A stretch of 42,719 nucleotides of DNA. It comes from Patescibacteria group bacterium. GTDB taxonomy: Bacteria > Patescibacteriota > Minisyncoccia > Phycocordibacterales > UBA2100. The stretch is taken from positions 7,686 to 50,404 of the forward strand of contig JBBUFE010000001.1 in the NCBI GenBank assembly GCA_038056635.1, in the 5' to 3' direction. Shown here piece by piece: positions 2,711-42,566 of the stretch. The position numbers were made by a program, and so were the translations under genes. Positions within the stretch are counted from its first letter, which is position 1. Each line of letters starts with the position of its first letter. The notes beneath the pieces were generated by a model. It worked only from the letters and a program-made list of their open reading frames with translations. It searched no databases and was not told the origin of the DNA.

Positions 2711-2808
2711 AGTAGTGAGTGGTCAGTAGTTAGTAGTTCGTAGTTAAAAACACAACTGGATTGTCCCCTTTATTCACTACTGGCTACGGGCTACGGGCTG
2801 TAAGCTAA
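2711..2808. repeat. heptamer-array inverted repeat (GTAG / CTAC cores)
   Basis: The left arm at 2711-2745 is AGTAGTG AGTGGTC AGTAGTT AGTAGTT CGTAGTT. The right arm at 2774-2808 is TCACTAC TGGCTAC GGGCTAC GGGCTGT AAGCTAA. The arms are partly complementary and fill the dksA-comM spacer. Confidence 0.7.
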
Positions 2809-2812
2809 TTCA

Positions 2813-4366
2813 ATGGGAAAAAAACAGAAAATTGCTTCAGGTTTCGCGCGACTTTTTGGGGCACAGCCCGCGCTCCCGCGCGCGCACGTCGTCTCTGTTG
2901 AAACAGACATAACGAAGGGCTTACATGCATTCACAATAGTCGGGCTTCCAGATAAATCAGTTGAGGAAGCGAAAGATAGAATAGCGTCGGCAATAAAAAA
3001 TAGCGAATTTGAATCGCCCAAGAGAAGCAATAAGAAGATTGTCATCTCGCTCGCTCCCGCCACTTTGAAAAAAGAGGGCGGGGCTTTTGATTTGCCGATG
3101 GCGCTTTCGTTTATGCTTGCTTCGGAGCAGGTTAAATTTAATCCTGCGGGAAAGTTGTTCGCCGGAGAACTAGCGCTCGACGGAGAAGTGCGCGGGATAC
3201 TGGGCGCTCTTTCCATTGCAATTTCTGTGCGCGATAAGGGTTTTAAAGAATTTTTCCTGCCCGAAGAAAATCTGGAGGAGGCATCTTTGGTTTCCGGAAT
3301 CACGCTCTTCGGCGTGCACACGCTTAAAGAATTGCTCGAGCATTTAAATGGGGAGAGGAGCATCGCGCCTTACATAAAAAAGGAGGGTTCCCGCACCAAT
3401 AAAGCGCAGGAGATTGAAGGGCCTATTTTTGACGACATAAGAGAGCAGAGTAGTGCAAAACGCGGACTGGAAATCGCCGTTGCTGGCAGGCACAACATCG
3501 CGCTGTATGGTCCGCCGGGAACTGGAAAAACGATGCTCGCTCGCGCGGCCACCTCCCTTTTGCCGGAGCTTTCTTTGGAGGAAGTAATCGAGGTAACGAT
3601 GATTCACTCGCTCGCAGGAACATCAGAAGGGCGCGCGATTGTCCGCGCGCCGTTCAGAAGCCCCCACCACACCTCTTCGTACGCATCTTTAATCGGCGGC
3701 GGCTCAAGCCCTCGCCCAGGAGAAGTTACTCTCGCTCACAGAGGCGTTTTATTTCTTGATGAATTTCCGGAATTTCACCGCGATGTCGTGCAAGCGCTCC
3801 GCGAACCGCTGGAGGACAAGGTGGTTTCGATATCGCGCGCCAAAGGCTCCGCGATATTTCCAGCAAACTTCATGCTGATTGCGGCGCTAAACCCTTGCCC
3901 TTGCGGATTTTGGGGGAGCGCGCGATGTGAATGCATGCCCCACGTTGTTGAAAAATACCGGCGCAAAATTTCCGGGCCGGTCGCTGACCGAATAGACATG
4001 TGGGTTTCCGTCGGCGACATCGCGCCCGAAGCTATGGCAATGCGCAAAAGAAAAGCTACCGGCGAGACCGAGGCAGTGCGTGAAAGAATAGTGAAGGCAC
4101 GCGCTCGACAGAATGAACGATTTGCAGATACAAAAGGAGTCTCCACAAATGCCGATATGAAAGCCAAGCAACTAGATACGCTCGCAAAACTGACGCAGAA
4201 GGCGGAAGAAACATTAATCGGCGCCGCCCGCTCTCTCAAACTTTCTCCTCGCGGCTACCATCGCACCATCAAACTCGCCCGCACCGTCGCCGACTTGGTT
4301 GGCAGCGACACTATTGAACCCCCTCACATGCTCGAGGCATTGCAATACAGAGCCCGCGAGTTGTGA
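2813..4366 (+). CDS. comM: Mg-chelatase-like ATPase ComM/YifB
   Basis: 517 aa with a Lon-like N-terminal domain, Walker A GPPGTGKTML, Walker B VLFLDEFPEF, and CPCG and C-terminal helical regions typical of YifB/ComM. Confidence 0.9.
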   Translation: MGKKQKIASGFARLFGAQPALPRAHVVSVETDITKGLHAFTIVGLPDKSVEEAKDRIASAIKNSEFESPKRSNKKIVISLAPATLKKEGGAFDLPMALSFMLASEQVKFNPAGKLFAGELALDGEVRGILGALSIAISVRDKGFKEFFLPEENLEEASLVSGITLFGVHTLKELLEHLNGERSIAPYIKKEGSRTNKAQEIEGPIFDDIREQSSAKRGLEIAVAGRHNIALYGPPGTGKTMLARAATSLLPELSLEEVIEVTMIHSLAGTSEGRAIVRAPFRSPHHTSSYASLIGGGSSPRPGEVTLAHRGVLFLDEFPEFHRDVVQALREPLEDKVVSISRAKGSAIFPANFMLIAALNPCPCGFWGSARCECMPHVVEKYRRKISGPVADRIDMWVSVGDIAPEAMAMRKRKATGETEAVRERIVKARARQNERFADTKGVSTNADMKAKQLDTLAKLTQKAEETLIGAARSLKLSPRGYHRTIKLARTVADLVGSDTIEPPHMLEALQYRAREL

Positions 4367-4377
4367 GTAAAAGGCGT

Positions 4378-4778: not shown

Positions 4779-4780
4779 AC

Positions 4781-5974: not shown

Positions 5975-6028
5975 TCCACAGATTGCGTGCAATCTGTGGA
6001 AATTTTTAATTTTTAATTTTTAATTTTC
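5975..6028. repeat. 26-nt palindrome followed by (AATTTTT)x4
   Basis: TCCACAGATTGCGTGCAATCTGTGGA lies at 5975-6000. It is followed by AATTTTT AATTTTT AATTTTT AATTTTC at 6001-6028, which runs into the stop codon of the minus-strand M23 gene. Confidence 0.6.
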
Positions 6029-7349: not shown

Positions 7350-9254
7350 ATGGCCTCTCCCGGCGCGAAATATCTTGATGGCCTAAATGAGGCTCAAAAA
7401 CAGGCTGTTTTGCACAAAGATGGACCGCTTTTAATCGTCGCCGGCGCCGGAGCGGGCAAGACTAAAACCATAACCCATCGAATCGCACATCTAATAGAGA
7501 GTGGCGTCCCGGCCAGAAGCGTCCTCGCAGTGACATTTACCAACAAGGCGGCAGGGGAAATGCGCGAGAGGGTGGGCCGGCTTCTTCCCGCGAGACTAGG
7601 CGGATTGCCTTTGGTTACGACATTCCACTCGTTGGGCGTTCGGCTCTTGCGAGAGTTCCACAAGGAGGCTGGCGTCCCGCGCGGATTCTCAATCTGGGAC
7701 CAAGACGACAGTACGCGAGCCGTCAGAGCCATTCTGAAACAGCTTGGAACGGAAGAATGGACGCCTCGACAAATACTTTCCGCAATTTCACGCGAAAAGG
7801 GTAGGGGTATGGCGATGCGCGACTATCGTGAGCGTGCGGGAAACCGGCGCGAGCAAATGGTGGCGCTCGTATGGGAGCGCTATGAAAAAACTCTCGCCGA
7901 GGAAAACTCTCTGGATTTTGACGACCTGTTGGTCCGGGCCCTCACGCTTCTTCGCGAATCGCCAAAAACACTTTCGCTTCTCCAAAATCGCTGGCGCTAT
8001 CTGACAATTGATGAGTATCAGGATACGAACACCACACAATATGAAATTGCGCGACTCTTGGCTGGAGAACGAAAAAACATCTGTGCAGTAGGTGACATCG
8101 ACCAACTTATTTATCAGTGGCGTGGAGCAGATATGGCAAATCTGCTTTCATTCGAGAAAAATTTTTTGAATTCAACAGTAATTCTGCTCGAACAAAACTA
8201 CCGCTCGACTAGAACAATCCTAGCCGCGGCAAATTCAGTGATTGAAAAAAATTCCAATCGTATTCCAAAAACACTTTTTAGCGAGGGAAAAACTGGAGAA
8301 CCAATTGCAATTTACGGCGCAATGGACGAGCGCGGCGAAGCATGGTTCGTTGTGGAACAATCGGCTCTTCTTATAAACAAGGGGGTGTCCGCGCATGAGA
8401 TTGCAGTTCTATATCGCGAAAATTCACAGTCTCGAGTTTTAGAGGAAGCGTTTTTGCACGCAGGTTTGCCATATCGAGTTTTGGGTACCCGATTCTTCGA
8501 GCGCAAGGAAGTGAAAGACGTGCTTTCATATCTGCGTGCCGTACTTAATCCTAAAAGCAAGAATGACATTATGCGCATCGTTGGCGTACCGCCGCGCGGC
8601 ATCGGGAAAGTAACGCTTGAAAAGATGCTGGCAGGCGAATCACTGGGTGCCGCAGGGGCGAAAGTCGCGAAATTTCAAGAGTCGCTCGCAAAAATCCGAG
8701 AGGCGGTAAATATTCTTCCCGCTTCCGAGGCAGTAAAATTCTGCATTGAGGAAAGCGGGATACAAAAAATGTATGCAGATAAGACGGAGGAGAGCCGCGA
8801 ACGGCTTGGCAATGTGCGCGAACTTGCGAACCTCGCCGCGAAGTACGAAAACGACGAGCCACCCTCGGGAATTGAACGACTTTTGGAAGAAGCCGCGCTA
8901 CAGAGCGAGCAAGACCAACTTGATATCACCAAAGAAAAAGGAGGAGTTTCTCTTATGACGGTACACGCGTCAAAAGGTCTTGAGTTTGATGCGGTTTTCG
9001 TAGTCGGGCTTGAGCAAGGACTCTTCCCGTCTTTGCGCGATGACCAAGAGCGCGACCCGGAAGAAGAGCGGCGACTTTTTTATGTGGCTCTCACGCGCGC
9101 TCGCAAGCATTTGTTCCTGATTTATGCGCACGAACGCACGAAATACGGTTCGCGGGAAGGAGCGATGCCATCGGAATTCTTATCCGATATTGATCCTCGA
9201 TTGATGAAGTACGCGACGGAAGAGGCTGGGGGGAAAGAGGATATTATTGAATGA
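7350..9254 (+). CDS. uvrD: UvrD/PcrA-family ATP-dependent DNA helicase
   Basis: 634 aa with Walker A AGAGAGKTKTITHR, and the motifs TFHSLG, DEYQDTN, NYRST, VLYR, TVHASKGLEFD and VALTRAR. Confidence 0.9.
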   Translation: MASPGAKYLDGLNEAQKQAVLHKDGPLLIVAGAGAGKTKTITHRIAHLIESGVPARSVLAVTFTNKAAGEMRERVGRLLPARLGGLPLVTTFHSLGVRLLREFHKEAGVPRGFSIWDQDDSTRAVRAILKQLGTEEWTPRQILSAISREKGRGMAMRDYRERAGNRREQMVALVWERYEKTLAEENSLDFDDLLVRALTLLRESPKTLSLLQNRWRYLTIDEYQDTNTTQYEIARLLAGERKNICAVGDIDQLIYQWRGADMANLLSFEKNFLNSTVILLEQNYRSTRTILAAANSVIEKNSNRIPKTLFSEGKTGEPIAIYGAMDERGEAWFVVEQSALLINKGVSAHEIAVLYRENSQSRVLEEAFLHAGLPYRVLGTRFFERKEVKDVLSYLRAVLNPKSKNDIMRIVGVPPRGIGKVTLEKMLAGESLGAAGAKVAKFQESLAKIREAVNILPASEAVKFCIEESGIQKMYADKTEESRERLGNVRELANLAAKYENDEPPSGIERLLEEAALQSEQDQLDITKEKGGVSLMTVHASKGLEFDAVFVVGLEQGLFPSLRDDQERDPEEERRLFYVALTRARKHLFLIYAHERTKYGSREGAMPSEFLSDIDPRLMKYATEEAGGKEDIIE

Positions 9255-9267
9255 GAAAAGGACCTCG

Positions 9268-9399
9268 CCCATACACCAACTTTGGCATCATTTTGCGGAA
9301 TCAATGCCGACAGATCACAGGTGTTGCTAACTAGAGTAATATATCCTTAAGAAATATATATGCGGCAAAATAGACGCAATGCCAAAATTGGTGTCGGGG
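9268..9399. mobile_element. MITE-like element, copy A (132 bp)
   Basis: The TIRs are CCCATACACCAACTTTGGCATCATTTTGCGG and CGCAATGCCAAAATTGGTGTCGGGG. There is no flanking direct repeat. The element contains the ATG (9360) used by the rsmA ORF. Confidence 0.55.
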
Positions 9400-10178
9400 C
9401 AAGACTTGGACAGCATTTTTTGAAAACGCCGTGGGCGGCGCGCCCACTCGCGCGCGCGGCATACATTACTGGCGACGACACTGTTCTTGAAATCGGGCCT
9501 GGAAAAGGAGCTCTCACGCGCGAGCTTCTCTCGGTGTCAAAAAAAGTAGTCGCGATTGAAAAAGACGAGGCGCTTGTTGAAAAGTTGCGCGAAAAGTTCG
9601 CGCAAGAAATCTCCACTAACGCACTTACGGTCATTTCCGGCGATATACGCGATATCACGCCAAAAAAACTTGGGCTCGAATCTGGAAAATACATCCTGGC
9701 GGCTAATATTCCGTATTACATAACCGGAGAAATCGTCCGGCAGTTCTTGACAGCCGAAGAACAACCCCGCGCAATGGCGCTTCTTGTTCAAAAAGAGGTA
9801 GCGCAGAGAATCATCAGCAAAAAGGAAAGTCTGTTATCGCTCTCAGTTAAGGTTTATGGCTCCCCGAAAATTGTTGCCAAAGTTCCTCGAGGAAATTTCA
9901 CACCAGCGCCAAATGTTGATTCGGCAATTTTGCTCATAGACAACATTTCTCGGCAATTTTTCGCAGATTTAGATGAAAACTTATTTTTCAAAGTCATTCA
10001 CGCAGGGTTCATGTCCAAAAGAAAATATCTCCTTAACAACCTTGCCACTGTCTTCAAAAAAGAATCGGCCGCTAGCGCATTCGCAATTTGTGAAATAAGT
10101 CTGAAAGCACGCGCCGAGGATGTTCCTCTTGATGCTTGGCGAGCAATCGCCAAGCAGCTTCTAGCTTCTAGTAGCTAG
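9360..10178 (+). CDS. rsmA: 16S rRNA (adenine1518/1519-N6)-dimethyltransferase
   Basis: LGQHFL is followed by the SAM-binding motif EIGPGKGALT and NIPYYIT. The first 14 codons (MRQNRRNAKIGVGA) are encoded by MITE copy A. The C-terminal LLASSS and the stop are encoded by a CTAG heptamer array. Confidence 0.85.
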   Translation: MRQNRRNAKIGVGARLGQHFLKTPWAARPLARAAYITGDDTVLEIGPGKGALTRELLSVSKKVVAIEKDEALVEKLREKFAQEISTNALTVISGDIRDITPKKLGLESGKYILAANIPYYITGEIVRQFLTAEEQPRAMALLVQKEVAQRIISKKESLLSLSVKVYGSPKIVAKVPRGNFTPAPNVDSAILLIDNISRQFFADLDENLFFKVIHAGFMSKRKYLLNNLATVFKKESAASAFAICEISLKARAEDVPLDAWRAIAKQLLASSS

Positions 10179-10240
10179 CTTCTAGGAATATTGTCTTTTG
10201 CTTTTCTAGCAGCTAGAAGCTAGTCCCTAGCAACTATCTT
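10157..10240. repeat. CTAG-heptamer hairpin element (empty form)
   Basis: The left arm is GCTTCTA GCTTCTA GTAGCTA GCTTCTA (10157-10184), followed by a 21-nt spacer/loop. The right arm is CTAGCAG CTAGAAG CTAGTCC CTAGCAA CTATCTT (10206-10240). It covers the stop codons of both convergent genes. Confidence 0.8.
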
Positions 10241-10560
10241 GACGACCCCATCATTGAAATTGAAATACCGGGCAAAACATAAATCGGCACTGGCAGAACG
10301 AGGCAAAAATAGGGGACGCTCGTCAGCCCCAAAAGCCACTGACCACCACTCGTTGGCGGACCGTTCTGATATGTCCGCGTCGCGGGTGTCCAGACATACA
10401 AACCCGCGTTCGGAGGGCCAATCGCAGCCAAAATAGCTACGTTAAAACAAGGAAACACAAAACTGGTCTGCCCGCCGAAAGGTGCGGCATATGCGGAGTT
10501 TGGCACGCTGAAAAGAAGGGCGCCACACAGAACAACGACCGATACGAGACGGTTGGACAT
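10234..10560 (-). CDS. small secreted protein (signal peptide), unknown function
   Basis: The ATG at 10560 gives MSNRLVSVVVLCGALLFSVPNSAYA followed by a mature ~83-aa Gly/Pro-rich hydrophobic protein. It is divergent from the T4SS-like block. Confidence 0.5.
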   Translation of the reverse strand: MSNRLVSVVVLCGALLFSVPNSAYAAPFGGQTSFVFPCFNVAILAAIGPPNAGLYVWTPATRTYQNGPPTSGGQWLLGLTSVPYFCLVLPVPIYVLPGISISMMGSSR

Positions 10561-10725: not shown

Positions 10726-10760
10726 CTATACGCTATACGCTATACGCTATACGCTATGCC
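10726..10760 (+). repeat. (CTATACG)x4 plus degenerate fifth unit containing the start codon
   Basis: CTATACG occurs at 10726, 10733, 10740 and 10747. CTATGCC at 10754-10760 contains the ATG at 10756. Confidence 0.85.
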
Positions 10761-11712
10761 ATGGCTTCGCGCATATCCTCGGTCGGCTCTAATCGCTCTC
10801 GCGGTGACTCTCATTGTTATTGGCAGTCTTGTTATCGCAAGAAAATCCCCAATGGAAACAAGCCCCTCATATTCAACCGTCTCTGAAGAAAGCGCTTTTG
10901 TTGAATCACCGTTTCCTTATGATACCGCGCCCATAGCAGAGGAGGGTGTCTTGAAGCTCATTCCGCCATCACTTATGCAGTCAGTAGTAAGCAGTCCTCC
11001 CTTTTCATATTCTTCTCCTTTTATTTCTCGGGAGGCCAAACCTGCTCCCAGCGTCGTTCCATCAAACACATCTTCTGCGGAAGTGAAAAAAACTCCCGAA
11101 ATTACAGACGGCGCGAATTTTTGGAACGCATATTCGCTGACACCTCGCGGACTGATAAGCACTTCAATAGCAATAAAAACCCGCACCCCCGAAGAAAAAG
11201 CTCTTTTTGATTACGGCAACGAGCTCGGCTTATATATAGGAGCATTCGAGGACGCCCATCAAAATACGGTTTCTTCTTTTCAGGATTTCTTTTCGGCTCG
11301 GGGCGCTACGCCTTCTGGAGAATTAGGGGGATTAAAGGCGGGATCGCAACCAAAGCCCGCGCCGCCTCCAGCGGACGGAGGCCTTTCCGCTATTGAAAGA
11401 ATCACATCAACGGCAAGAGATTACTCGCGGCTCGGAGATACTATCGCGAACATGAGTTCTGTTCCAAAAGACGCACAACGTCTCCATCTGACCCTCTCCC
11501 AAGGTTACGGCGAGATTGGCGCGGGTCTTTCCGCAATCGTCCAACCGAATGGCGGCGACCTGGTAAAAGCTGTCCTTGCCTACAATGAATCCGCAGATAA
11601 ATTCATCAAAAATTTTGTGTCTCTTGCAGAATTTTTCTCCGCTCGCGGCATCAAATTCTCTTCGAGCGACCCTGGAAATATTTTTTCTTTCAGCGCAACA
11701 GGCGGTCTATAG
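10756..11712 (+). CDS. membrane-anchored protein, unknown function (paralogue of next gene)
   Basis: The ATG at 10756 gives MPWLRAYPRSALIALAVTLIVIGSLVIA (TM anchor). A Ser/Pro-rich linker and a helical C-terminal domain follow. A canonical terminator follows the gene. Confidence 0.6.
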   Translation: MPWLRAYPRSALIALAVTLIVIGSLVIARKSPMETSPSYSTVSEESAFVESPFPYDTAPIAEEGVLKLIPPSLMQSVVSSPPFSYSSPFISREAKPAPSVVPSNTSSAEVKKTPEITDGANFWNAYSLTPRGLISTSIAIKTRTPEEKALFDYGNELGLYIGAFEDAHQNTVSSFQDFFSARGATPSGELGGLKAGSQPKPAPPPADGGLSAIERITSTARDYSRLGDTIANMSSVPKDAQRLHLTLSQGYGEIGAGLSAIVQPNGGDLVKAVLAYNESADKFIKNFVSLAEFFSARGIKFSSSDPGNIFSFSATGGL

Positions 11713-16910: not shown

Positions 16911-16911
16911 T

Positions 16912-18055: not shown

Positions 18056-18057
18056 AT

Positions 18058-18660: not shown

Positions 18661-18669
18661 TTATTCTAT

Positions 18670-25231: not shown

Positions 25232-25250
25232 GCGAACCCGCACACTCATT

Positions 25251-26742: not shown

Positions 26743-26748
26743 ATAGAA

Positions 26749-26878: not shown

Positions 26879-26884
26879 AATTCT

Positions 26885-26904
26885 TTATCCCCACCCTATC
26901 CCCA
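26885..26904 (+). promoter_or_regulatory. two tandem DnaA-box-like 9-mers
   Basis: TTATCCCCA (26885-26893) and CTATCCCCA (26896-26904) have 1 and 2 mismatches to TTATCCACA. They lie 70-90 nt upstream of dnaA. Confidence 0.4.
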
Positions 26905-26958
26905 CCTTGTAAACACACGGGAAGGAACCCCTCCTCTTTCCATAAAAGAAGCGGCGCG

Positions 26959-26964
26959 TATAAT
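26959..26964 (+). promoter_or_regulatory. -10 hexamer TATAAT upstream of dnaA
   Basis: A perfect TATAAT lies 9 nt before the dnaA ATG at 26974. This implies a very short or absent leader. Confidence 0.4.
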
Positions 26965-26973
26965 GACCGTCCT

Positions 26974-29673: not shown

Positions 29674-29715
29674 GGTCTACTGGCCGCAAGCCACAGGCTA
29701 CGAGCTACTGGCTCT
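29674..29715. repeat. single heptamer array (NNNCTAC-type)
   Basis: GGTCTAC TGGCCGC AAGCCAC AGGCTAC GAGCTAC TGGCTCT lies between the convergent dnaN and PBP stops. The units resemble the right arm at 2781-2794. Confidence 0.55.
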
Positions 29716-32179: not shown

Positions 32180-32217
32180 GAAGTTAATCGACTGATTGTA
32201 CCGCAAGTAACCGGTTG

Positions 32218-32353
32218 CCCCGACACCAACTTTGGCATTGTGTCTTCAACTGTGTCATCGTACGAAGGCGAGTCGTCGGCGAACGAGAGGACGTATTTGT
32301 GGTTTCATGCGAAGAAACTTCCACGCGCAATAATGCCAAAGTTGGTGCATGGG
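32218..32353. mobile_element. MITE-like element, copy C (136 bp)
   Basis: The TIRs are CCCCGACACCAACTTTGGCATTGTGTC and CGCAATAATGCCAAAGTTGGTGCATGGG. The flanks GGTTG and CTTGG are only a degenerate direct repeat. Confidence 0.55.
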
Positions 32354-32419
32354 CTTGGCAAAAACGCCCAAATATGGCATCTTCTAGCAATTAACCTCTC
32401 GTCCATCACAAAGCTCCCT

Positions 32420-33528: not shown

Positions 33529-34014
33529 CTAATGCGCGGATGGACGAACTCTCGATAGGTGGGTCAAACCGACGGCTATGGCGTCATACTCGTCGTCGTA
33601 TTTTATTTCCTTTTCGATTTTCACGAGCGCGTGTAGCATTTTGGCGATTTGTTGCTTATCTGCTCTGCCGTAGCCTCCAGCGGCACTCTTAATTTCCCCT
33701 GGAGTATATTCAAAAACGGGGATGCCGAGGTTTGCCGCGGCATTGATGAGCGCGCCCCGCACTTCCGCGACGCGCATCGCGGTTTTTTGATTCGTGCTGA
33801 AGTAGAGTTTCTCCATCGCGAGCGCGTCTGGCATATATTTCTTTGCAAGACGAGAGCATTCACCCGCAACAGTTCCAAGCCGCGCGGTAAAATCAGCGTC
33901 CTTAGATGTCTCTATGCAATCGGAATAAAGAAGAACCTCTTTCGTTCCTTCCGTGCGCTCCAACACGGCCACGCCGCATCTTCCGTATCCGGGGTCAATT
34001 GCCAAAACTCTCAT
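33529..34014 (-). CDS. ruvC: Holliday junction resolvase RuvC
   Basis: MRVLAIDPGYGRCGVAVLE is the RuvC N-terminal catalytic motif. The 161-aa length fits. Confidence 0.9.
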   Translation of the reverse strand: MRVLAIDPGYGRCGVAVLERTEGTKEVLLYSDCIETSKDADFTARLGTVAGECSRLAKKYMPDALAMEKLYFSTNQKTAMRVAEVRGALINAAANLGIPVFEYTPGEIKSAAGGYGRADKQQIAKMLHALVKIEKEIKYDDEYDAIAVGLTHLSRVRPSAH

Positions 34015-34015
34015 A

Positions 34016-34098
34016 GCTTCTAGCTTCTAGCTTCTAGGGGCTAGAAACAATATCTGTATTGTACTAGAAGCTAGTAGCTAGTCCCTAGCAGCTATTCA
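34016..34098. repeat. CTAG-heptamer hairpin element (empty form)
   Basis: The left arm is GCTTCTA x3 plus GGGGCTA (34016-34043), followed by a 20-nt loop. The right arm is CTAGAAG CTAGTAG CTAGTCC CTAGCAG CTATTCA (34064-34098). It spans exactly from the ruvC start to the yebC stop. Confidence 0.8.
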
Positions 34099-34626
34099 CG
34101 CGGAGTTCGTGTAAACCTCCTCCACATCGTCGTGCGAGCCGATTTCCTCCAGAACTTTTTGAAGTTTTTCTTTGTCGGATTTAGAAAGCGGGGCTGTCGT
34201 CTTTGGCGAGTAACCATCGGCCGTTTTTCCGAACGCCCACATGGCGCTTCCGGGTGAGGCGAGCGCCAGACCGTTTTCCAAAAGCAGGTGTTTTATTTCT
34301 TGCGCCGTTCTATTGTGATTGTCGGTCAAGGTCTCAATGAGAATCGCGACGCCACCGGGACCGTAGGTCTCGTAGACAACAGTATCAAGAGAGCCGGAAT
34401 CGGCGGATATTCCTTTCGCAACCGCGCGGTCAATGTTTTCTTTCGGCATGTTTGATTCGCGCGCCTTCTCAATGACAGCACGAAGGTGCGGGGTGTTGAC
34501 ATCGCCGTTGGCTTTCTTGGACTCAACAGAGATTCGTTTAGAGAGCTTTCCCCACACGTTGCTTTTGCTGGCGTCCGCCGCGCCTTTGCGGTGTTTTATT
34601 TGCGACCATTTGTTGTGTCCAGACAT
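34096..34626 (-). CDS. yebC: YebC/PmpR-family protein (shortened)
   Basis: MSGHNKWSQIKHRKGAADASKS... and YETYGPGGVAILIETLTDNHNRT match the YebC family. At 176 aa it is shorter than the ~240 aa typical of the family. Confidence 0.85.
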   Translation of the reverse strand: MSGHNKWSQIKHRKGAADASKSNVWGKLSKRISVESKKANGDVNTPHLRAVIEKARESNMPKENIDRAVAKGISADSGSLDTVVYETYGPGGVAILIETLTDNHNRTAQEIKHLLLENGLALASPGSAMWAFGKTADGYSPKTTAPLSKSDKEKLQKVLEEIGSHDDVEEVYTNSA

Positions 34627-34630: not shown

Positions 34631-34665
34631 ATAGGGTATAGCCACTAGGGCATAGGGAATAGCGG
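34631..34665. repeat. single heptamer array (ATAGGGN x5)
   Basis: ATAGGGT ATAGCCA CTAGGGC ATAGGGA ATAGCGG fills the spacer between the yebC start and the upstream gene's stop. Confidence 0.65.
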
Positions 34666-34667
34666 AC

Positions 34668-34985
34668 CTATTTTGGCGGCTCCTCTTTCCCCAAAAGTTT
34701 TTCTAGGTTGGCGCGGAATACTCCAAGGTGGTATTCAAGCACTTTGATTACATCGGCATCTTTTTCGCTCTCTGCAGGGAGCAACGTCGACAGATCGCCG
34801 TCTTGCACTTCCGCGCCCCCTCCTTCTATTCCTGTACTCCCGCCATGTTCCGCTCCGACGAGATTATTCTTCGCCTTTTCCAGTCCCTTCTCCAGATATT
34901 CAATGGCCTCCCTAAGGGACTCTATTCCTTTTTTGTCCGGCGGAGGTTCGAACGTTTTAAAACTAAAGCCTTCAGGGTCTTTCAT
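34668..34985 (-). CDS. hypothetical small acidic protein
   Basis: 105-aa ORF with an ATG start and no recognisable motif. It is co-oriented with yebC-ruvC. Confidence 0.45.
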   Translation of the reverse strand: MKDPEGFSFKTFEPPPDKKGIESLREAIEYLEKGLEKAKNNLVGAEHGGSTGIEGGGAEVQDGDLSTLLPAESEKDADVIKVLEYHLGVFRANLEKLLGKEEPPK

Positions 34986-35397
34986 ATATCGTTAAAATGG
35001 ACTGGTGTGGCGGGAGTATGCCAAATTGTTATTGCGACGAACGCAGATTTAAACGATAACACAAAGCTGGCGGAAAAGAGGAGATGTCATGTTTTGATAT
35101 ATGCCGAGTTATTCACAGGCATATCCACTCGATATCCACGGTTTCGGGACTTTTGCGTAAGTTTGACAGGCAAAACCATTCTTTATAATCCTACGACTGA
35201 TGTGCTTAACCGTGCGTCGGTCGTTGCCAAGGGGATATGCAGTAATGCAAATCAGTCCGGGTAACTGCTCCTTGAATCTATTCCTGGCGCAAGTCGGGAG
35301 AAGCTACGGGAGTCGTCGGACAGAGTAGTGGGGTGAAGTGTGAAGCGTGGGGAGATCATATCAAGACGCGCGGAACATCTCATCGATTTCCAATGTC

Positions 35398-35437
35398 CGA
35401 AAAAACAAATAATCTCCCGCAAGGGAGATTATTTGTT
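35398..35437 (-). terminator. Rho-independent terminator (minus strand)
   Basis: A 15-bp perfect stem, AACAAATAATCTCCC / GGGAGATTATTTGTT (35404-35437), closes a 4-nt loop. The plus-strand A-run at 35400-35405 gives a U-tract after the hairpin on the minus strand. Confidence 0.7.
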
Positions 35438-35521
35438 ACCGTGCGTAGCAACCACAGTGTACATGCGGAATAGAAAAGAAATCTTGTTATCCACAGGGAA
35501 ATTAAGTGTAGCGACATTGTA

Positions 35522-35549
35522 TTGACACGCTGTTTGTGATTGGTATGAT
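35522..35549 (+). promoter_or_regulatory. sigma70-like promoter of the dinJ-yafQ pair
   Basis: TTGACA (35522-35527), a 16-nt spacer and TATGAT (35544-35549) are present. The ATG at 35556 lies 7 nt after the -10, suggesting a leaderless mRNA. Confidence 0.5.
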
Positions 35550-35555
35550 TGCGAC

Positions 35556-35828
35556 ATGACCACTATACAAGTACGCATTGACGAAAAAACGAAAGCAAAG
35601 GCCAATAAGGTCTTTCGCAAAATGGGGCTTGATATGTCGAGCGGCGTTAAGCTATATCTTGCGCGCGTTGTGCAGGACGAGACGATTCCTTTTACCGTTC
35701 GTACGGTGAACGGATATACGCCGGAGCAGGAACGGCAGATGATTAGAGAAACGGAGTATGCGAAACTTCACGGAAAGCGGTACGATGATATCGATGAGTT
35801 GATGCGTGACGTATTCGGCAAGAAGTAA
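35556..35828 (+). CDS. RelB/DinJ-family type II antitoxin
   Basis: MTTIQVRIDEKTKAKANKVFRKMGLDMSSGVKLYLARVV is the DinJ ribbon-helix-helix pattern. The 90-aa length fits. Confidence 0.8.
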   Translation: MTTIQVRIDEKTKAKANKVFRKMGLDMSSGVKLYLARVVQDETIPFTVRTVNGYTPEQERQMIRETEYAKLHGKRYDDIDELMRDVFGKK

Positions 35829-35829
35829 C

Positions 35830-36111
35830 ATGTATTTAGTCGTCATTTCGTCTCGTGCGAGAAAATCATTGCGCAAGTACGAACACATCGGCGTGTTTCC
35901 ACGAGGCAAATTCAGGCAGGCACTCTTGCATCTGCGAGAAAACGGCTTCTTGCCGGTATCCTATAGAGACCACCAGCTCCACGGAGAGCTTTCAACTTAT
36001 CGCGAATTTCACATTGCCTCTGATGTTCTCGTTCAATACGAACATGACGAGAAATTGATGGTTATCACGATTACTGATGTTGGGACGCATACCGAATTTT
36101 TCGGCTCGTAA
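35830..36111 (+). CDS. YafQ/RelE-family type II toxin (mRNA interferase)
   Basis: The ATG at 35830 lies 1 nt after the antitoxin stop. RDHQLHGELSTYREFHIASDVLVQY matches the YafQ DH.L.G....RECHI..D.LLIY motif. Confidence 0.75.
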   Translation: MYLVVISSRARKSLRKYEHIGVFPRGKFRQALLHLRENGFLPVSYRDHQLHGELSTYREFHIASDVLVQYEHDEKLMVITITDVGTHTEFFGS

Positions 36112-36120
36112 CACACGAAG

Positions 36121-37137
36121 CTAGATTAGCGGCGGTTGAGATTTTCGAGGAGCATCCGCTCCTATGTGCTCATATCCCTTTTTCGTCACCGTTCTCCCGC
36201 GGGGAGTTCTGTCCAAAAGGCCGAGTTGCATCAAGTACGGCTCATGCACTTCTTCAATAGTGTCCTCCTCTTCGGAAAGGGAAGCGGAGATTGTTTTTAA
36301 TCCGACAGGACCGCCGCCGAATTTCTCCACGATGATTGAGAGGATGTCGCGGTCGGTCTGATTGAGCCCGCCCTCGTCAATTTCAAGAAGCGCGAGAGCC
36401 TTTTTTACGGTCTTTAAGTTCAACGGCTCTTCGTTAACTTCCGCGAAGTCGCGGCAGCGCTTTAGTAGATAATTCGCCGTGCGCGGTGTCGCGCGGCTTC
36501 TGCTCGCAACTTCTTTTATGGAGTCGCCGTCGGTTTTGATATTAAGGATTTTTGCGGAACGCTTGAGAATTTCCGCTATCTCGTTCTCGCTGTAGTACTG
36601 AAGCCGGAACGTGCCGCCGGAAAAGCGGGAGCGGAGCGGCGCGGAAAGCATGGAAATGCGCGTGGTCGAGGCAATCAGTGTAAAAGGCGGGAGCTCCAAC
36701 TGCACGGTGCGCGCCGAAGGGCCTTTTCCAATTATGATGTCCAAAACCCCGGCTTCCATTGCGGGATACAAGACTTCCTCGATGGTTCGATTGAGCCGAT
36801 GGATTTCGTCTATAAAAAGAACGTCTCCCGGCGAGAGGTTGGTCAGAATTGAAGCGAGGTCGCCCACGCGCTCAACCGCGGGTCCGGAGGTGGCGCGCAT
36901 AGATGCTCCTATCTCTTTTGTCATGAGATGAGCGAGAGTGGTTTTGCCGAGACCGGGCGGCCCATATAGAAGCACGTGCTCGGGCTGGTGGTTTCTGCCT
37001 TTGGCGGCAGTGAGGAGAATTCGCAGGTTCTCTTTTATGGTCGGCTGACCCACATACTCTTCCCAACTCAAAGGGCGGAGCGCCAAATCAAGGGAGCGCG
37101 GGCTTTTTTCAATAGTATTTTTATCTTTATCTGTCAT
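36121..37137 (-). CDS. ruvB: Holliday junction branch-migration helicase RuvB
   Basis: The motifs are LRPLSWEEYVGQ, Walker A GPPGLGKTTLA, Walker B VLFIDEIHRL and the arginine finger LRSRF. The 338-aa length fits. Confidence 0.95.
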   Translation of the reverse strand: MTDKDKNTIEKSPRSLDLALRPLSWEEYVGQPTIKENLRILLTAAKGRNHQPEHVLLYGPPGLGKTTLAHLMTKEIGASMRATSGPAVERVGDLASILTNLSPGDVLFIDEIHRLNRTIEEVLYPAMEAGVLDIIIGKGPSARTVQLELPPFTLIASTTRISMLSAPLRSRFSGGTFRLQYYSENEIAEILKRSAKILNIKTDGDSIKEVASRSRATPRTANYLLKRCRDFAEVNEEPLNLKTVKKALALLEIDEGGLNQTDRDILSIIVEKFGGGPVGLKTISASLSEEEDTIEEVHEPYLMQLGLLDRTPRGRTVTKKGYEHIGADAPRKSQPPLI

Positions 37138-37138
37138 A

Positions 37139-37267
37139 CCCGAACACTAAGTTTGCCGTAATTTTGTGCCGAAGCAACCCCAGAACACTCTGGTTTCCCA
37201 CCTGTTGTTGCAAAACCACCCATAGTGGCTTGGTTCATGAGAGGCAACGGCAAATTTAGTGTGCGGG
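37139..37267. mobile_element. MITE-like element, copy D (129 bp, diverged)
   Basis: The TIRs are CCCGAACACTAAGTTTGCCGTAATTTTGTGCC and GGCAACGGCAAATTTAGTGTGCGGG. A perfect 5-bp direct repeat, TCATA, lies at 37134-37138 and 37268-37272. The left copy contains the ruvB start codon. Confidence 0.7.
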
Positions 37268-37393
37268 TCATACTTGTGAGACCCTCTAGCTCTCTATCAG
37301 AGAGGCGAAGGGACTCTGTAACCTCTTCCACATACAATATCACCATGCGCTTGTCTCGCAACGGGACTCTGACATGGGCCTCTGCACATGCGC

Positions 37394-39164: not shown

Positions 39165-39184
39165 AAGAGTATTATACTCTACAC

Positions 39185-39622
39185 ATGAAGTCGCCTGCTG
39201 TAAGTATGGAAGGGTTGGAAAAAATGGCGTGCGAGTTTGCGACGCGTCTCACTCCTAAAAAAGACGGCGCGACGGTAGCGGCGCTTTCGGGAGACTTGGG
39301 TGCAGGGAAAACTGCTTTTGCGAAGGCGCTCGCGCACGCATACGGCATCAAGGAGGATGTCACGAGCCCTACATATGTAATTGAAAAAATTTACATTCCA
39401 GCAAAAGGCCCGTTTTCCCGTTTCATTCACATTGACGCATATCGATTAAACGGCGCGCACGACCTTGAAGTGCTCGGTTGGAGAGAGTTGCTCCTCGAAC
39501 CATCCAACCTTATCCTTCTTGAGTGGCCGGAGAGGGTGGAAGGAGCAATACCCGCCGACGCAATACGAATTTCACTAGAATTTGTGGACGAAAATATGCG
39601 GGAAGTGACAATCGAAGAATGA
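39185..39622 (+). CDS. tsaE: tRNA t6A37 biosynthesis ATPase TsaE
   Basis: 145 aa with GDLGAGKTAFAKAL, then SPTY and HIDAYR, the YjeE/TsaE signature. Confidence 0.85.
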   Translation: MKSPAVSMEGLEKMACEFATRLTPKKDGATVAALSGDLGAGKTAFAKALAHAYGIKEDVTSPTYVIEKIYIPAKGPFSRFIHIDAYRLNGAHDLEVLGWRELLLEPSNLILLEWPERVEGAIPADAIRISLEFVDENMREVTIEE

Positions 39623-40066
39623 ATTATGAATATAGAATATAGAATAATGAAGACATGATCAAAGATTTTACTGACCTAAATACTTGGAAAGAGGGGCACA
39701 AACTTGTCCTGTTCACTTATAGGATATGCAAAGCTTTTCCCAAGGAAGAACTTTTTGCGTTAGCAAGCCAAATGAAACGAGCTTCAACCTCTATAACCTC
39801 AAACTTGGCAGAAGGCTTTGGCAGAAAAGGTTATAAAGAAAAAGTTCAATTTTATTACTTATCAAACGGATCTTTAGTCGAATTAAAAAATCAACTGATT
39901 ATTGCAAGAGATGTTGGTTATATAAACGGGCAGTTATTCACAGATGGAATGAGGCAAGCAAATCTTACACAGCAACTTCTGCAGGGACTTATCACAAAGT
40001 CAAAATCTTTCCTTCCGAACCATGATTCATAAATCATCATTCTTTATTCAATATTCATAAGATGCT
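39620..40066 (+). mobile_element. second inverted-repeat-flanked cassette carrying a four-helix-bundle gene
   Basis: The left array is TGAATTA TGAATAT AGAATAT AGAATAA TGAAGAC (39620-39654), running exactly from the tsaE stop to the cassette ATG. The right array is ATCATCA TTCTTTA TTCAATA TTCATAA GATGCT (40033-40066). The arms are complementary at 24 of 27 aligned positions. Confidence 0.45.
39655..40032 (+). CDS. four-helix-bundle protein (23S rRNA intervening-sequence protein / Avd-like family)
   Basis: 125 aa. DLNTWKEGHKLVLFTYRICKAFPKEELFALASQMKRASTSITSNLAEGFGR...GSLVELKNQL has the same family signature as 17630-17998. Confidence 0.85.
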   Translation: MIKDFTDLNTWKEGHKLVLFTYRICKAFPKEELFALASQMKRASTSITSNLAEGFGRKGYKEKVQFYYLSNGSLVELKNQLIIARDVGYINGQLFTDGMRQANLTQQLLQGLITKSKSFLPNHDS

Positions 40067-42508
40067 ATGGCCGAAAAGGACACAAAAAAGAATAGCAAAG
40101 ATGGCCGCGGTGACATCAAGCGCCTCGTCCTTCTCGACGCGCACGCGATTATCCATCGCGCGTATCACGCGCTCCCTGACTTTTCATCATCAAAGGGAGA
40201 ACCGACGGGCGCGCTTTACGGCCTCATAACAATGCTTCTGAAAATCATCGAGGATTTGAAGCCGGATTATATTTCTGCGTGCTTTGACCTCCCAGACCCT
40301 ACACATCGCCACATTGCATACGAAGGTTACAAGGCGACGCGCGCAAAAACGGAAGACGCGCTCGTGTCCCAGCTCATACGCTCCCGCGCGGTGTTTAAGG
40401 CGTTTGGAATTCTAACATACGAGGCAAAGGGTTTTGAGGCCGATGATATTTTGGGAACAGTTGCAAAAGGCCTAAAAAAACGCTCCGATATTGAAATTGT
40501 GATAGCTTCGGGCGACCTCGACACTCTCCAACTTGTCGACGGCAAGCGCGTAAAAGTGTACACGCTCCGCAAGGGTTTGAATGACACCGTTATATATGAC
40601 GAAAATGGGGTGGAAGAGAGGTACGGATTCGGTCCGGAGCGCATCCCCGACTACAAAGGATTAAGCGGGGACGCATCAGACAATATAAAGGGAATTACCG
40701 GTATCGGAGAAAAAACCGCTACTAATTTGATATTGCAATTTGGTTCGGTTGAGGAAATTTACAAAACGCTCAAGAAAAATCCTGAAGAATTTGAAAAACG
40801 AGGCATCACTCCGCGAGTCGTGAAAATGTTGAGTGAAGGAGAAAAAGATGCAGTTTTCTCAAAAATGCTCGCGACCATTCGCGCGGATGTACCCATTTCG
40901 TACGAAGTGCCGGAAAAAACTTGGAGCGTGGAAGAGAACCTGCAAAACATCCTTTCTCTTTGCGACGAGTTGGAATTTTACTCGCTGAAGAAGCGTCTCG
41001 TCGCAAAATCAAAATCGGAGAGCTCGCGGGATAGTTCGCAAGAAGAGGAAGCGGTTGATAAAGATGCGCTTGCAGAAACATCAATTGCGCTTTGGCTTCT
41101 CCATTCCGACAGGACGAGCCCGACACACGATGACATTTTGAGGTATGCAAAAACCGAGGATTTTGATTCGGCGCGTAAAATGATTTTTGAAGAGCTGGAA
41201 AAGGCCGGACGATTGCAGGAAGTGTATGACCGCATCGAACGGCCGCTCATTCCCGTCATACAGCGGATGAACAAGGACGGAGTTTTTTTGGATGTGCCGT
41301 ATCTTGAAAAATTAAAGGCAGAGTACAGAGAGGAGTTGGCGAAAATAGAGGGGCGAATTTTCAAGTCCGCTGGGCACGAGTTCAATGTAAGCTCGCCGAA
41401 ACAGCTAGCTGTTGTTTTGTTCGACGAATTGAAGCTCGTCCCTCTAAAACAGAAAAAAACACCCGGAGGCGCCAGAACCACGCGCGAAGACGAGTTGGAA
41501 AAAATGACAGCGCTTCACCCTGCGATTGCCGATGTGCTCTCTTATCGCGAACTTTCCAAACTGCTCTCCACTTATATTGAGAAAATGCCGGCTCTGGTCG
41601 CAGAAGATGGCAAACTGCACGCTGAATTTCTTCAGGCGGGGACTACAACCGGGCGAATTGCGTCCCAAAATCCGAACCTGCAAAACATTCCCATTAAAAG
41701 CGATTATGGCCGGCGCGTCCGCTCGGCGTTTACTGCTACCCCCGGGCATGTTCTCGTTGCGCTGGATTATTCGCAGATAGAGCTTCGAATCGCGGCGGGA
41801 CTTTCGGGAGACAAAAAGTTGCTCAAAGTATTTCAAGAAAAAGGCGATGTGCATACCGCCGTTGCATCGCAGGTTTTTGGCGTTCCAGCTGAAAAAGTAG
41901 ACTACGAAACGCGCCGACGAGCGAAGGTTATTAATTTTGGAATTCTATACGGAATGGGCGTGAACGCCCTCCAGTCGAACTTGGGAACAAACATCTCGCG
42001 CGAGGAATCCGCCAAATTTCTTTCGGAGTATTTCAAAAACTTTTCGGGTCTGGCTTTGTGGATTGAGAAAACGAAAATTGATGCCGCGCGCAGGGGATTT
42101 ACTGAAACTCTTTTCGGACGACGGCGATATTTTTCTGGTTTCAACTCGCCGCTTCCCAATTTGCGCGCGCAGGCGGGGAGAATGGCGGTGAACGCGCCGA
42201 TACAAGGCACGCAAGCCGACATCATCAAGCTCGCGATGGTGGAAGCCGACAAGCTTATAGAAGAAAAGAACTGGCGGGGGAAAGTGCGGCTTGTTCTGCA
42301 AATTCACGACGAACTCGTCTATGAGGTTGCAGAATCAGATGCAGACCTGCCCGCGCCAGCTGGCTGGCAGGCGGGAAAAATCGCCCGCGAGTTATGCAAG
42401 GCGATGGAATCAGTTGTTCCGAAAGGACAATTATCCGGCGTGCCGATAGAAGTCGAAATTGCGATTGGGGAAGACTGGGGAAATTTGAAGAGAGTATCTG
42501 GTATATAG
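40067..42508 (+). CDS. polA: DNA polymerase I
   Basis: 813 aa with the 5' nuclease N-terminus LLDAHAIIHRAYHAL. The polymerase motifs are A (LDYSQIELR), B (RRRAKVINFGILYGM) and C (LQIHDELVYE). Confidence 0.9.
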   Translation: MAEKDTKKNSKDGRGDIKRLVLLDAHAIIHRAYHALPDFSSSKGEPTGALYGLITMLLKIIEDLKPDYISACFDLPDPTHRHIAYEGYKATRAKTEDALVSQLIRSRAVFKAFGILTYEAKGFEADDILGTVAKGLKKRSDIEIVIASGDLDTLQLVDGKRVKVYTLRKGLNDTVIYDENGVEERYGFGPERIPDYKGLSGDASDNIKGITGIGEKTATNLILQFGSVEEIYKTLKKNPEEFEKRGITPRVVKMLSEGEKDAVFSKMLATIRADVPISYEVPEKTWSVEENLQNILSLCDELEFYSLKKRLVAKSKSESSRDSSQEEEAVDKDALAETSIALWLLHSDRTSPTHDDILRYAKTEDFDSARKMIFEELEKAGRLQEVYDRIERPLIPVIQRMNKDGVFLDVPYLEKLKAEYREELAKIEGRIFKSAGHEFNVSSPKQLAVVLFDELKLVPLKQKKTPGGARTTREDELEKMTALHPAIADVLSYRELSKLLSTYIEKMPALVAEDGKLHAEFLQAGTTTGRIASQNPNLQNIPIKSDYGRRVRSAFTATPGHVLVALDYSQIELRIAAGLSGDKKLLKVFQEKGDVHTAVASQVFGVPAEKVDYETRRRAKVINFGILYGMGVNALQSNLGTNISREESAKFLSEYFKNFSGLALWIEKTKIDAARRGFTETLFGRRRYFSGFNSPLPNLRAQAGRMAVNAPIQGTQADIIKLAMVEADKLIEEKNWRGKVRLVLQIHDELVYEVAESDADLPAPAGWQAGKIARELCKAMESVVPKGQLSGVPIEVEIAIGEDWGNLKRVSGI

Positions 42509-42566
42509 TATCTAGTATCTTGTATGAATGCATACCAAATACAAAATACGAAATACTAAATACCAA
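42494..42566. repeat. heptamer-array hairpin (GTATNNN x5 / ATACNAA x5)
   Basis: GTATCTG GTATATA GTATCTA GTATCTT GTATGAA (42494-42528) contains the polA stop. A TGC loop follows, then ATACCAA ATACAAA ATACGAA ATACTAA ATACCAA (42532-42566). ATTCT-ATG comes next. Confidence 0.8.

Follow-up and report, generated by a model that had tools for sequence, protein, structure and literature searches.

Heptanucleotide repeats of heterocystous cyanobacteria, the short tandemly repeated repetitive (STRR) sequences, were reportedly described by Mazel and colleagues in 1990. An excess of heptamer simple sequence repeats (SSRs) has been reported in many bacteria, and the idea that they arise by slippage is credited to Mrazek 2007 in two later papers (PMC4692102 and PMC4679880), through which it is taken here. 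The present analysis concerns a 42,719-nt stretch of contig JBBUFE010000001.1 from a Patescibacteria group bacterium (the window), in which tandem arrays of 7-nt units, often in inverted pairs, occupy gene junctions. Two of the pairs enclose genes of the protein family PF05635, also called 23S_rRNA_IVP, S23p, 23S rRNA-intervening sequence protein or "four helix bundle" protein, and abbreviated IVP below.

Several described systems resemble these arrays. In the 23S rRNA intervening sequence (IVS) of Coxiella, a 28-bp terminal stem is cut by RNase III, an S23p open reading frame (ORF) lies in the loop, and tandem heptamers, three or four copies of GACAGAT with the number varying among strains, stand ahead of its ATG (Warrier et al. 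2016, PMC4990558). Xanthomonas carries 186 GGGAATC arrays, with four units preferred and 70-75 convergent pairs, which stay at conserved positions across species but differ in length and sequence (Rehm et al. 2015, PMC4692102). Geobacter metallireducens has 24+21+8 pairs of opposite-strand sites, each of 3-5 tandem 7-9-nt units and some of them inside operons (proB/proA and moaA/mosC, for example), which the authors guessed to be IHF/HU sites (Aklujkar et al. 2009, PMC2700814). PF05635 genes were noted within cas operons in 2013 and within rRNA insertions of the candidate phyla radiation (CPR) in 2024. In the open-access literature we found no paper linking PF05635 genes with heptamer arrays in general, and the PF05635 gene XCC0516 goes unmentioned in Rehm et al. 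2015 (PMC4692102).

The architecture seen in the window, then, is already known from Xanthomonas (2015), Geobacter (2009) and the cyanobacterial STRRs and is not a new kind of element; an earlier note on this DNA, made from the sequence alone, was mistaken in stating that no described class combines these properties. The new part is the link between the PF05635 gene and the heptamer arrays. The arrays are very probably the inverted ends, ~28-35 nt long and composed of 4-5 units, of small palindromic, IVS-like, PF05635-linked elements placed in operon junctions.

Period-7 arrays of the window

Tandem Repeats Finder returned period 7 in 20 of its 36 rows, at essentially all the coordinates listed in the earlier note. 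Lag-7 autocorrelation with a cut-off of at least 15 self-matches in 21 found 19 segments, compared with 0.18 in shuffles, while the other periods from 4 to 13, and period 15, gave 0-1 segment each, the shuffle level. At a stricter cut-off of at least 18 in 21, period 7 retained seven segments; other periods gave none except the harmonic 14, and dinucleotide shuffles gave none. Almost all arrays fall within the non-coding ~10% of the window. The heptamer arrays are real and well above chance. The note's description of period 7, inverted arms and 4-5 units per arm is correct, as is its statement that the arms typically extend from the stop codon of the preceding gene to the ATG of the next, and within the window enrichment over shuffled controls was found for this period and no other.

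The arrays are not assembly artifacts, the origin that the note had named as fatal to its claim, because contigs recovered from the same groundwater population in other samples (L170, L171 and L172, with 99.5-99.7% identity to the window) carry them base for base. In all, identical arrays are present in four independent assemblies. The left arm of J10 (junction labels as in Table 1) is also present in L001. No unit-number polymorphism was seen among the four strain contigs, a comparison of low power that covers ~300 nt of array at 0.3-0.5% divergence. Exact runs of 100 N occur in L170 (13252-13351), L171 (3031-3130 and 16705-16804) and L172 (16732-16831); a run replaces the rpmH-dnaA heptamer region in L171 and another lies just past it in L172, so that this junction cannot be compared between strains.

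Two finer properties of the units were checked. The TAG triplets that the note reported at 10162, 10169 and 10176 do lie in three different frames, but stop codons in all three frames of a given strand occur in only 11 of 24 arrays and are therefore a trait of the CTAG type rather than a general property. A position-specific mismatch test for a core-plus-variable structure gave a mean z of -0.14, a count contaminated by segment edges.

The gene content of the window (dnaA, dnaN, yidC, rnpA, polA, ruvB, ruvC, yebC, pilB and a PrgI/VirB4 type IV-like cluster) points to a CPR organism. The window belongs to a Candidatus Kaiserbacteria genome; the nearest genomes are Candidatus Kaiserbacteria / Paceibacterota metagenome assemblies, and an identical contig is present in a Hainich groundwater metagenome.

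PF05635 cassettes and their ORF-less copies

Two arm pairs (17563-17597/18021-18055 and 39620-39654/40033-40066) flank intact PF05635 ORFs of 369 nt and 378 nt, designated IVP1 and IVP2, which match the Pfam model with E values of 4e-40 and 2e-31, respectively, and correspond to NCBIfam TIGR02436, "four helix bundle protein". The note had treated all junctions as spacers, which these two are not. Arm-gene-arm cassettes measure 445-490 nt, and the short ORF-less hairpin form measures 80-100 nt. IVP2 is an insertion: tsaE and polA overlap in L002 and L003 (ATGA, ATGGTAG), while in the window 445 nt of arm, gene and arm fill precisely the space from the tsaE stop to the polA ATG.

The ORF-less junctions J3, J7 and J10 align over their full length with a composite of both ends of the IVP1 cassette; for J3 the alignment score is 85, compared with -14 in shuffles. 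An irregular unit, ...CTAGAAGCT(A/G)GTCCCTAGCAGCTA... with GGGAC on the opposite arm, is common to the IVP1 ends, J3, J7 and J10, and this GTCCC/GGGAC unit stands at the same place in all four copies of the AGCTTCT family, a coincidence that independent slippage would not produce. By these alignments, the members of the AGCTTCT/CTAGAAG set are copies of a single dispersed element, with or without a gene, whose inverted ends of ~35 nt are heptamer-periodic; the heptamer periodicity is read as internal to the terminal inverted repeat. IVP1 orthologues in the metagenome contigs L082, L083 and L085 have the same AGCTTCT-family sequence as their arms. Unit cores do differ from locus to locus, as the note observed, but its inference that loci share architecture alone fails for this set. 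Single arrays are probably half-elements or decayed elements. No IVP remnants were found in the long ORF-less junctions of the window; L103 alone yielded a divergent IVP.

Selection on the IVP1 ORF among strains is purifying, with synonymous to non-synonymous codon changes of 12:4, 14:9 and 14:10. As a separate observation, single-nucleotide differences among the strain contigs are tightly clustered, at 17698-17912, 11564-11639, 14379-14484 and 18882-18972. The densest cluster lies within the IVP1 ORF (18-30 differences in 369 nt), whose arms are identical, and the clusters look like recombination tracts or allele exchange.

Measured against described classes, the elements show a mixed set of hallmarks. 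The four AGCTTCT copies form a multi-copy element with conserved terminal inverted repeats, as in MITEs, miniature transposable elements with inverted repeats. The two cassettes place a PF05635 ORF between stem-forming terminal inverted repeats, as in an IVS, without the insertion in a 23S/16S rRNA helix: an Rfam scan found no rRNA in the window, and the cassettes sit between protein-coding genes. Like STRRs, the arrays are head-to-tail 7-nt units at many loci with a non-coding bias, 19 arrays in 42.7 kb, and like the Xanthomonas and Geobacter sites they form opposite-strand pairs of ~3-5 units near ORF ends. Rfam at the gathering score returned no matches in the whole window, and PADLOC defense models matched neither IVP.

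One might suppose that the elements are hairpins of the MITE type or of the repetitive extragenic palindromic (REP) and bacterial interspersed mosaic element (BIME) type, mobilized by a transposase encoded elsewhere and acting as mRNA stabilizers or terminators, with the IVP gene as passenger cargo. The multi-copy family with conserved inverted ends, its location in operon junctions, the repeated occupation of the same junctions in distant genomes and a second, non-heptamer inverted-end family in the window would all fit. Yet no transposase gene or gene for a REP-associated tyrosine transposase (RAYT) was found in the 42.7 kb, where the Pfam scan covered just ten proteins; no target-site duplication is visible at the four AGCTTCT copies; there is no U-tract or terminator signature; and a specific link to one gene family across three phyla plus viral contigs is hard to explain as random cargo. 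We regard this explanation as unlikely.

IVP loci of Parcubacteria

An alignment of IVP homologues was scanned against metagenome contigs, yielding 80 loci, 75 of them usable. A period-7 array lies no more than 120 nt upstream of the IVP gene in ~48 of the 75, most with an inverted downstream partner, and in about half of the 75 Parcubacteria loci the PF05635 gene stands between inverted heptamer arms. Array density is 5.46 per 10 kb in IVP loci vs 0.61 per 10 kb in IVP-less loci, a nine-fold difference. The IVP-less comparison consisted of 80 yebC-anchored Parcubacteria relatives (1.28 Mb), in which no IVP homologues were found and in which period-7 arrays are patchy and, overall, do not exceed repeats of period 6 or 9 in frequency; some arrays therefore lie over 10 kb away from any IVP. 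Within the IVP loci, arrays are present at 67 of 127 junctions adjoining an IVP gene vs 47 of 182 other junctions (odds ratio 3.2, p 2e-6).

In many loci the site corresponds by orthology to that of IVP1, with a gene ending ...DPYREP* upstream and a PrgI-like gene downstream, and their arm units vary: AGCTTCT/CTAGAAG, AGCTTTC/CTGAAAG, GGTTCGA/CTCGAAC and GCCAGTA/GCTACCG. Junctions that hold empty arrays in the window are IVP cassettes elsewhere, the VirB4N/VirB4C junction in L120 and L103 and the dnaN/PBP junction in L158, and the tsaE/polA junction has an IVP also in L131. Among genomes with 88-92% identical VirB4, the VirB4N/VirB4C junction holds ORF-less hairpins of at least five unrelated unit types. 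The split of VirB4 itself into two ORFs, in the window an N-terminal TraC-like part (18670-19341) and the ATPase (19418-21358), is common to all Parcubacteria relatives examined, and the gap between the parts ranges from 2 nt up to a ~450-nt IVP cassette. Arrays thus hold their position at orthologous junctions while the sequence changes; of the changes that the note proposed to look for, cores do change between genomes, and no change in unit number was seen among the four strain contigs. Arms that stay complementary while units turn over fast between genomes point either to concerted evolution within arrays together with selection for pairing or to repeated re-invasion.

Period 7 is preferred but not fixed, because some IVP genes (in L122, L112, L116, L132, L153, L196 and L199) are flanked by arrays of 8-nt or other units, for example AGCTTCGT in L112 and CTGTTCGN upstream with CGAACAGC downstream in L196. 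Period-8 repeats are also raised, ~eight-fold, in IVP loci.

These comparisons bear on the simplest account, in which the arrays are functionless SSRs generated by replication slippage with a 7-nt bias, and both the inversion and the neighboring IVP genes are incidental. Perfect arrays exist (10726, 6001), arrays occur singly and inside an ORF (17341-17420), and a heptamer excess is widespread in bacteria, all as slippage would have it. Slippage would not lead one to expect the lack of unit-number polymorphism seen among strain contigs, arms that co-vary within cassettes, an irregular unit at the same place in four copies, a nine-fold density in IVP loci with no period-7 excess over periods 6 and 9 in IVP-less Parcubacteria, or positions kept at orthologous junctions despite sequence change. 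As a full explanation, slippage appears quite improbable.

Other phyla and viral contigs

A tblastn search with IVP1 against 72,556 plasmids matched 37 records, the ten most frequent genera all being cyanobacterial. Heptamer arrays flank seven of eight inspected IVP genes on cyanobacterial plasmids. The arms are, for example, GGTGACA/CTGTCAC in Anabaena sp. 90, where the gene stands between cas6 and cas4, and GGGAGTA/TACTCCC in Nostoc edaphicum, where its neighbors are nrdB and nrdA; N. punctiforme has CAGGAGT/GACTCCT and Geminocystis AAGGGAA/CTTTTCC. As for the cyanobacterial background, three 50-kb control regions contain only 9-10 arrays each; each of the three has one IVP gene, with arrays on both of its sides. 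In Xanthomonadaceae (three of three: X. campestris, X. sacchari and Stenotrophomonas), a gene of the XCC0516 family separates accB from accC, with inverted GGGAATC arrays on its two sides that extend from the stop codon of accB as far as the ATG of accC. Of 20 IVP loci on IMG/VR viral contigs, 14 have period-7 arms and two others have clear 8-nt arms. The association of PF05635 genes with arrays is therefore present in three phyla and in viral contigs.

PF05635 is related to Avd, a protein of diversity-generating retroelements (DGRs). Plasmid pANA02 of Anabaena sp. 90 (L175) carries both a DGR, with reverse transcriptase and Avd, and a stand-alone IVP cassette (9043-10539, 44265-44990); ~270 nt of CCTGTCA/CCTGTTC heptamers lie upstream of its IVP gene, up to cas6.

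Hairpins and the fate of the transcript

The note had proposed that each spacer can fold into a hairpin. Strong folding relative to shuffles was found for 19320-19420 (z -8.3) and 42485-42575 (z -5.0) and, on the minus strand, for 26745-26885 (z -3.6) and 34010-34100 (z -2.9); good stems are those of IVP1, J7, J8, J10 and J13. The proposal is not borne out for J1 (2705-2812), J3 (10150-10245) and J6 (18525-18665), which fold no better than shuffles, and for the single arrays, which do not fold. Arms pair better with their own partner (-43.6 kcal/mol) than with arms of other cassettes (-30.0 kcal/mol; 17 of 21, p 8e-5, Parcubacteria); the arms of one cassette co-vary. Relative to the gene, upstream arms are rich in G and downstream arms in C (p 1e-8), a polarity that recurs in the cyanobacterial, Xanthomonas and viral examples and points to a strand-specific constraint.

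With somewhat more confidence than doubt, we take the elements as a whole to be selfish IVS-like hairpins that are processed as RNA stems. Judging from its position, the element would be co-transcribed with the host operon. The arms, as folding predicts, would pair into a long stem reaching from the stop codon of the upstream gene to the start codon of the downstream one. By analogy with rRNA IVSs, this stem would serve as a processing or insulating site, cut most likely by RNase III, and insertion between originally coupled genes would be tolerated for that reason. Cleavage of the stem by RNase III is itself a tentative proposal, somewhat more open to doubt than the reading as a whole.

Several observations weigh against this account. 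Single arrays and arrays inside ORFs cannot act as stems, and a heptamer-generating mutational process must therefore also act outside hairpins. J1, J3 and J6 lack the expected fold, and J13, with just 4-6 bp paired per unit, is a poor substrate for RNase III. Sense and antisense duplexes of the arms have equal stability (G:U asymmetry test, p 0.11), so that selection for pairing at the RNA rather than the DNA level is not demonstrated. Some arrays, for example in L002, lie in loci with no IVP within 10 kb; conversely, about a third of IVP genes have no period-7 arms, some having 8-nt units instead. Arm units differ even between IVP1 orthologues that are 76% identical (GGTTCGA in L084). The missing target-site duplication and transposase or RAYT-like ORF count here as well.

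Alternatively, the arrays may be sites for a protein at the DNA level, either a nucleoid or global regulator (IHF/HU) or a pentameric S23p ring occupying 4-5 units, with effects on transcription, chromosome structure or element mobility. Structures of PF05635 relatives, PDB 2GSC (XCC0516) and 2RLD, have five chains each, XCC0516 being described as a homopentameric toroid (PMC4990558), and 4-5 units per arm would suit a five-subunit ring. The Geobacter annotation (PMC2700814), the lack of sense/antisense asymmetry in pairing, and the restriction of complementarity to a 4-5-nt core in several arms (42493-42568; the L002 dnaN junction) agree with binding to DNA, as do the one dominant unit, GGGAATC, which flanks a PF05635 gene in Xanthomonas, and the several unit types in the window, which has two IVP paralogues. 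The wide differences in unit sequence among close IVP orthologues tell against it, and the different arm units of 76%-identical orthologues argue specifically against sequence-specific recognition of whole units. A protein site does not require arms on both strands to co-vary as complements, and the G/C polarity relative to the gene suggests strand-specific constraints. DNA-level sites have an outside but real chance of being the explanation. The period of seven might reflect one unit per subunit of a pentameric S23p ring, or slippage, or three units making 21 bp, equal to two helical turns.

An intrinsic (Rho-independent) terminator was considered and rejected. Scans for sigma-70 promoters and intrinsic terminators found no signature at the arrays; in 16500-20000 no terminator-like sites occur at arrays, counts equal those of shuffles, there is no U-tract, and the arms abut start codons within operons.

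Translation initiation in this genome has a bearing on the stems. A Shine-Dalgarno-like motif precedes two of 28 genes, and many ATGs have a TATAAT-like box 7-12 nt upstream in a TAT/ATA context, as at 26953-26976 for dnaA and 39165-39187 for the divergent pair pilB/tsaE. This suggests widespread leaderless mRNAs in the Kaiserbacteria genome. Because the genome is nearly without Shine-Dalgarno sites and its mRNAs may often be leaderless, expression of the downstream gene could, speculatively, be affected by a stem joining its ATG to the stop codon upstream. Upstream arms that resemble Shine-Dalgarno sites, seen in cyanobacterial and viral examples, are not relevant here, given the two genes of 28.

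Comparison with described systems

As far as its sequence goes, the element has the same build as the S23p-encoding IVS of 23S rRNA, but within mRNA operons. In both, a PF05635 ORF lies in the loop of a terminal-inverted-repeat stem (Coxiella burnetii, Leptospira; PMC4990558). The Coxiella GACAGAT heptamers lie directly upstream of the ORF ATG, ORF-less versions exist in other bacteria, and the IVS, transcribed within the host transcript, is regarded as selfish. Unlike the IVS, the window elements sit in protein-coding operons rather than rRNA, and their arms stretch from a stop codon to a start codon. Cleavage by RNase III is demonstrated for Coxiella, whereas stems in the window are predicted by folding, and the Coxiella ORF is decaying while the Kaiserbacteria ORF is under purifying selection.

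The Xanthomonas GGGAATC repeats are likewise intergenic, have ~4 units, form convergent opposite-strand pairs near ORF ends and keep position while length and sequence vary; one pair flanks XCC0516. Their single dominant unit is G-rich and was interpreted as G-quadruplex-forming (PMC4692102), whereas the window has several unit families, none G-quadruplex-prone. Cyanobacterial STRRs are also intergenic tandem heptamers with several unit families per genome, and the plasmid copies flank PF05635 genes as inverted arms. They differ in having been described as dispersed tandem repeats, used for fingerprinting, and in arrays that can be much longer, with 14 units in Pseudanabaena; neither inverted arms nor a link to a gene were found mentioned in the searchable papers. 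The Geobacter metallireducens sites share opposite-strand pairing, 3-5 units of 7-9 nt, a separation of ~100 nt, location in operons and several classes per genome, but commonly have 8- and 9-nt units and were interpreted as IHF/HU or global-regulator sites, with no gene link reported.

The note's closest analogy, the REP/BIME elements of enterobacteria and pseudomonads, is fair functionally, both being short palindromic intergenic repeats in operons and capable of RNA hairpins, but the S23p-encoding IVS is closer. REPs belong to one conserved family of imperfect palindromes, 20-40 nt long with a GTAG head, and are moved by RAYT transposases, without internal 7-nt periodicity and without a PF05635 gene. 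Identity with REP/BIME was rejected on the several unrelated unit families and the lack of a transposase-like ORF among the window proteins (ten Pfam-scanned). The TAACTGA repeats of Beggiatoaceae, cyanobacteria and Bacteroidetes (MacGregor 2015, PMC4679880) are 2-6-unit heptamer arrays ending ~1 nt before start codons, some overlapping the upstream stop, and resemble the single arrays at 10726 and 34631; they differ in being almost always direct, with one unit sequence across phyla. TIGR or CRISPR-like arrays were rejected, the 7-nt units having no spacers.

Coordinates and other features of the window

Table 1. Heptamer-array features of the window (positions in nt; n, number of units)
Feature	Coordinates	Strand	Details
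J1 left arm, (AGTAGTT)n	2711-2746	+	5.1 copies; begins 3 nt past the stop of a dksA/traR-like gene (2331-2708)
J1 right arm, (GGCTACG)n	2774-2808	+	Ends 5 nt ahead of ATG 2813; pairing with left arm weak, z -1.2
Single perfect array, (AATTTTT)x3.9	6001-6027	no strand	100% matches; between two minus-strand genes
J3, ORF-less hairpin, AGCTTCT/CTAGAAG family	10156-10233	+	Left arm 10156-10185, including the stop of gene 9360-10178; right arm 10206-10233
Single perfect array, (CTATACG)x4.6	10726-10757	+	Ends at the downstream gene's ATG 10756; no fold
Two direct arrays, (GATACGA)x5 and (GATACNC)x4	17341-17420	+	Translated within ORF 16912-17568; arrays at 17341-17374 and 17395-17420, no stop codon in any frame; absent from the earlier list
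IVP1 cassette	17563-18055	+	Left arm 17563-17597, including upstream stop TAG 17566; PF05635 gene 17630-17998; right arm 18021-18055, ending 3 nt ahead of ATG 18058; arms 17 nt at 100% and 24 nt at 92% complementarity; arm duplex -56 kcal/mol
J6	18529-18660	+	Arms 18529-18556 (AGGCAAT/AGAAATT alternating) and 18633-18660 (CTTTTGC/CTAGTGC); from PrgI-like stop to near ATG 18670; fold not above shuffles, z -1.5
J7, ORF-less AGCTTCT/CTAGAAG hairpin	19326-19418	+	VirB4 N-terminal ORF (stop 19339) to VirB4 ATPase ORF (ATG 19418); fold -38.2 kcal/mol, z -8.3; 30 nt at 87% complementarity
J8	26749-26878	-	Arms (GTATNNN)n 26749-26818 and (NNNATAC)n 26851-26878; z -3.6; between rpmH and the DnaA-box region upstream of dnaA
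Single degenerate array, (GGCTACN)	29674-29715	no strand	Between convergent dnaN and PBP gene; this junction has a full hairpin in L002 and an IVP cassette in L158
J10, ORF-less AGCTTCT/CTAGAAG hairpin	34014-34094	-	yebC stop to ruvC ATG; z -2.9; homologue at the yebC/ruvC junction of L026
Single array, sense-strand (CCCTATN)n	34631-34665	-	Immediately upstream of yebC ATG; position kept in L003, L055, L065, L074, L051 and L036
IVP2 cassette	39619-40066	+	Left arm 39619-39654, beginning in the tsaE stop; PF05635 gene 39655-40032; right arm 40033-40066, ending at polA ATG 40067; 27 nt at 89% complementarity
J13	42493-42568	+	Arms (GTATCTN)n, including the polA stop, and (ATACNAA)n; z -5.0; pairing limited to GTAT/ATAC cores

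The ORF at 16912-17568 encodes a protein of the type IV secretion cluster whose C-terminal part consists of the two heptamer arrays, giving the peptide a 7-residue periodicity (IRDTRDE RRDT...). A second dispersed family, without 7-nt periodicity, has copies at 9264-9403, 25098-25232, 32217-32354 and 37138-37268, all in gene junctions; its ends are 21-25-nt inverted sequences, CCCCGACACCAAnTTTGGCAT / ATGCCAAAnTTGGTGTnGGGG, ~90 nt apart and conserved, while the interior is divergent. Between the heptamer hairpin J8 and dnaA, at 26886-26906, two 11-nt direct repeats, TATCCCCACCC, are DnaA-box-like, with similar boxes in relatives L005, L008 and L024. With rpmH starting at 26742 on the minus strand, this is likely an oriC or dnaA promoter region beside rpmH. 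A RelB-family antitoxin gene (35556-35828; PF04221, E 6e-13) is the only confident gene in a 1.1-kb region (34985-36121).

Implications

Heptanucleotide repeats have been known in cyanobacteria since 1990 and are over-represented in many bacteria, and PF05635 is a large family with solved structures. That the two travel together, in the build of an IVS, turns two open questions into one testable model. It is possible, though we consider it doubtful, that PF05635 rings are trans-acting partners of the arrays, binding one unit per subunit or driving array spread, and that gene and hairpins form one widespread selfish class dwelling in operons and rRNA. If true, such a class would account for the excess of heptamer repeats in bacteria, among them the STRRs, the GGGAATC arrays and the Geobacter paired sites. 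In CPR genomes, recurrent contig breaks and odd "spacers" are explained by the result, and it flags short PF05635 genes as insertions in essential operons.

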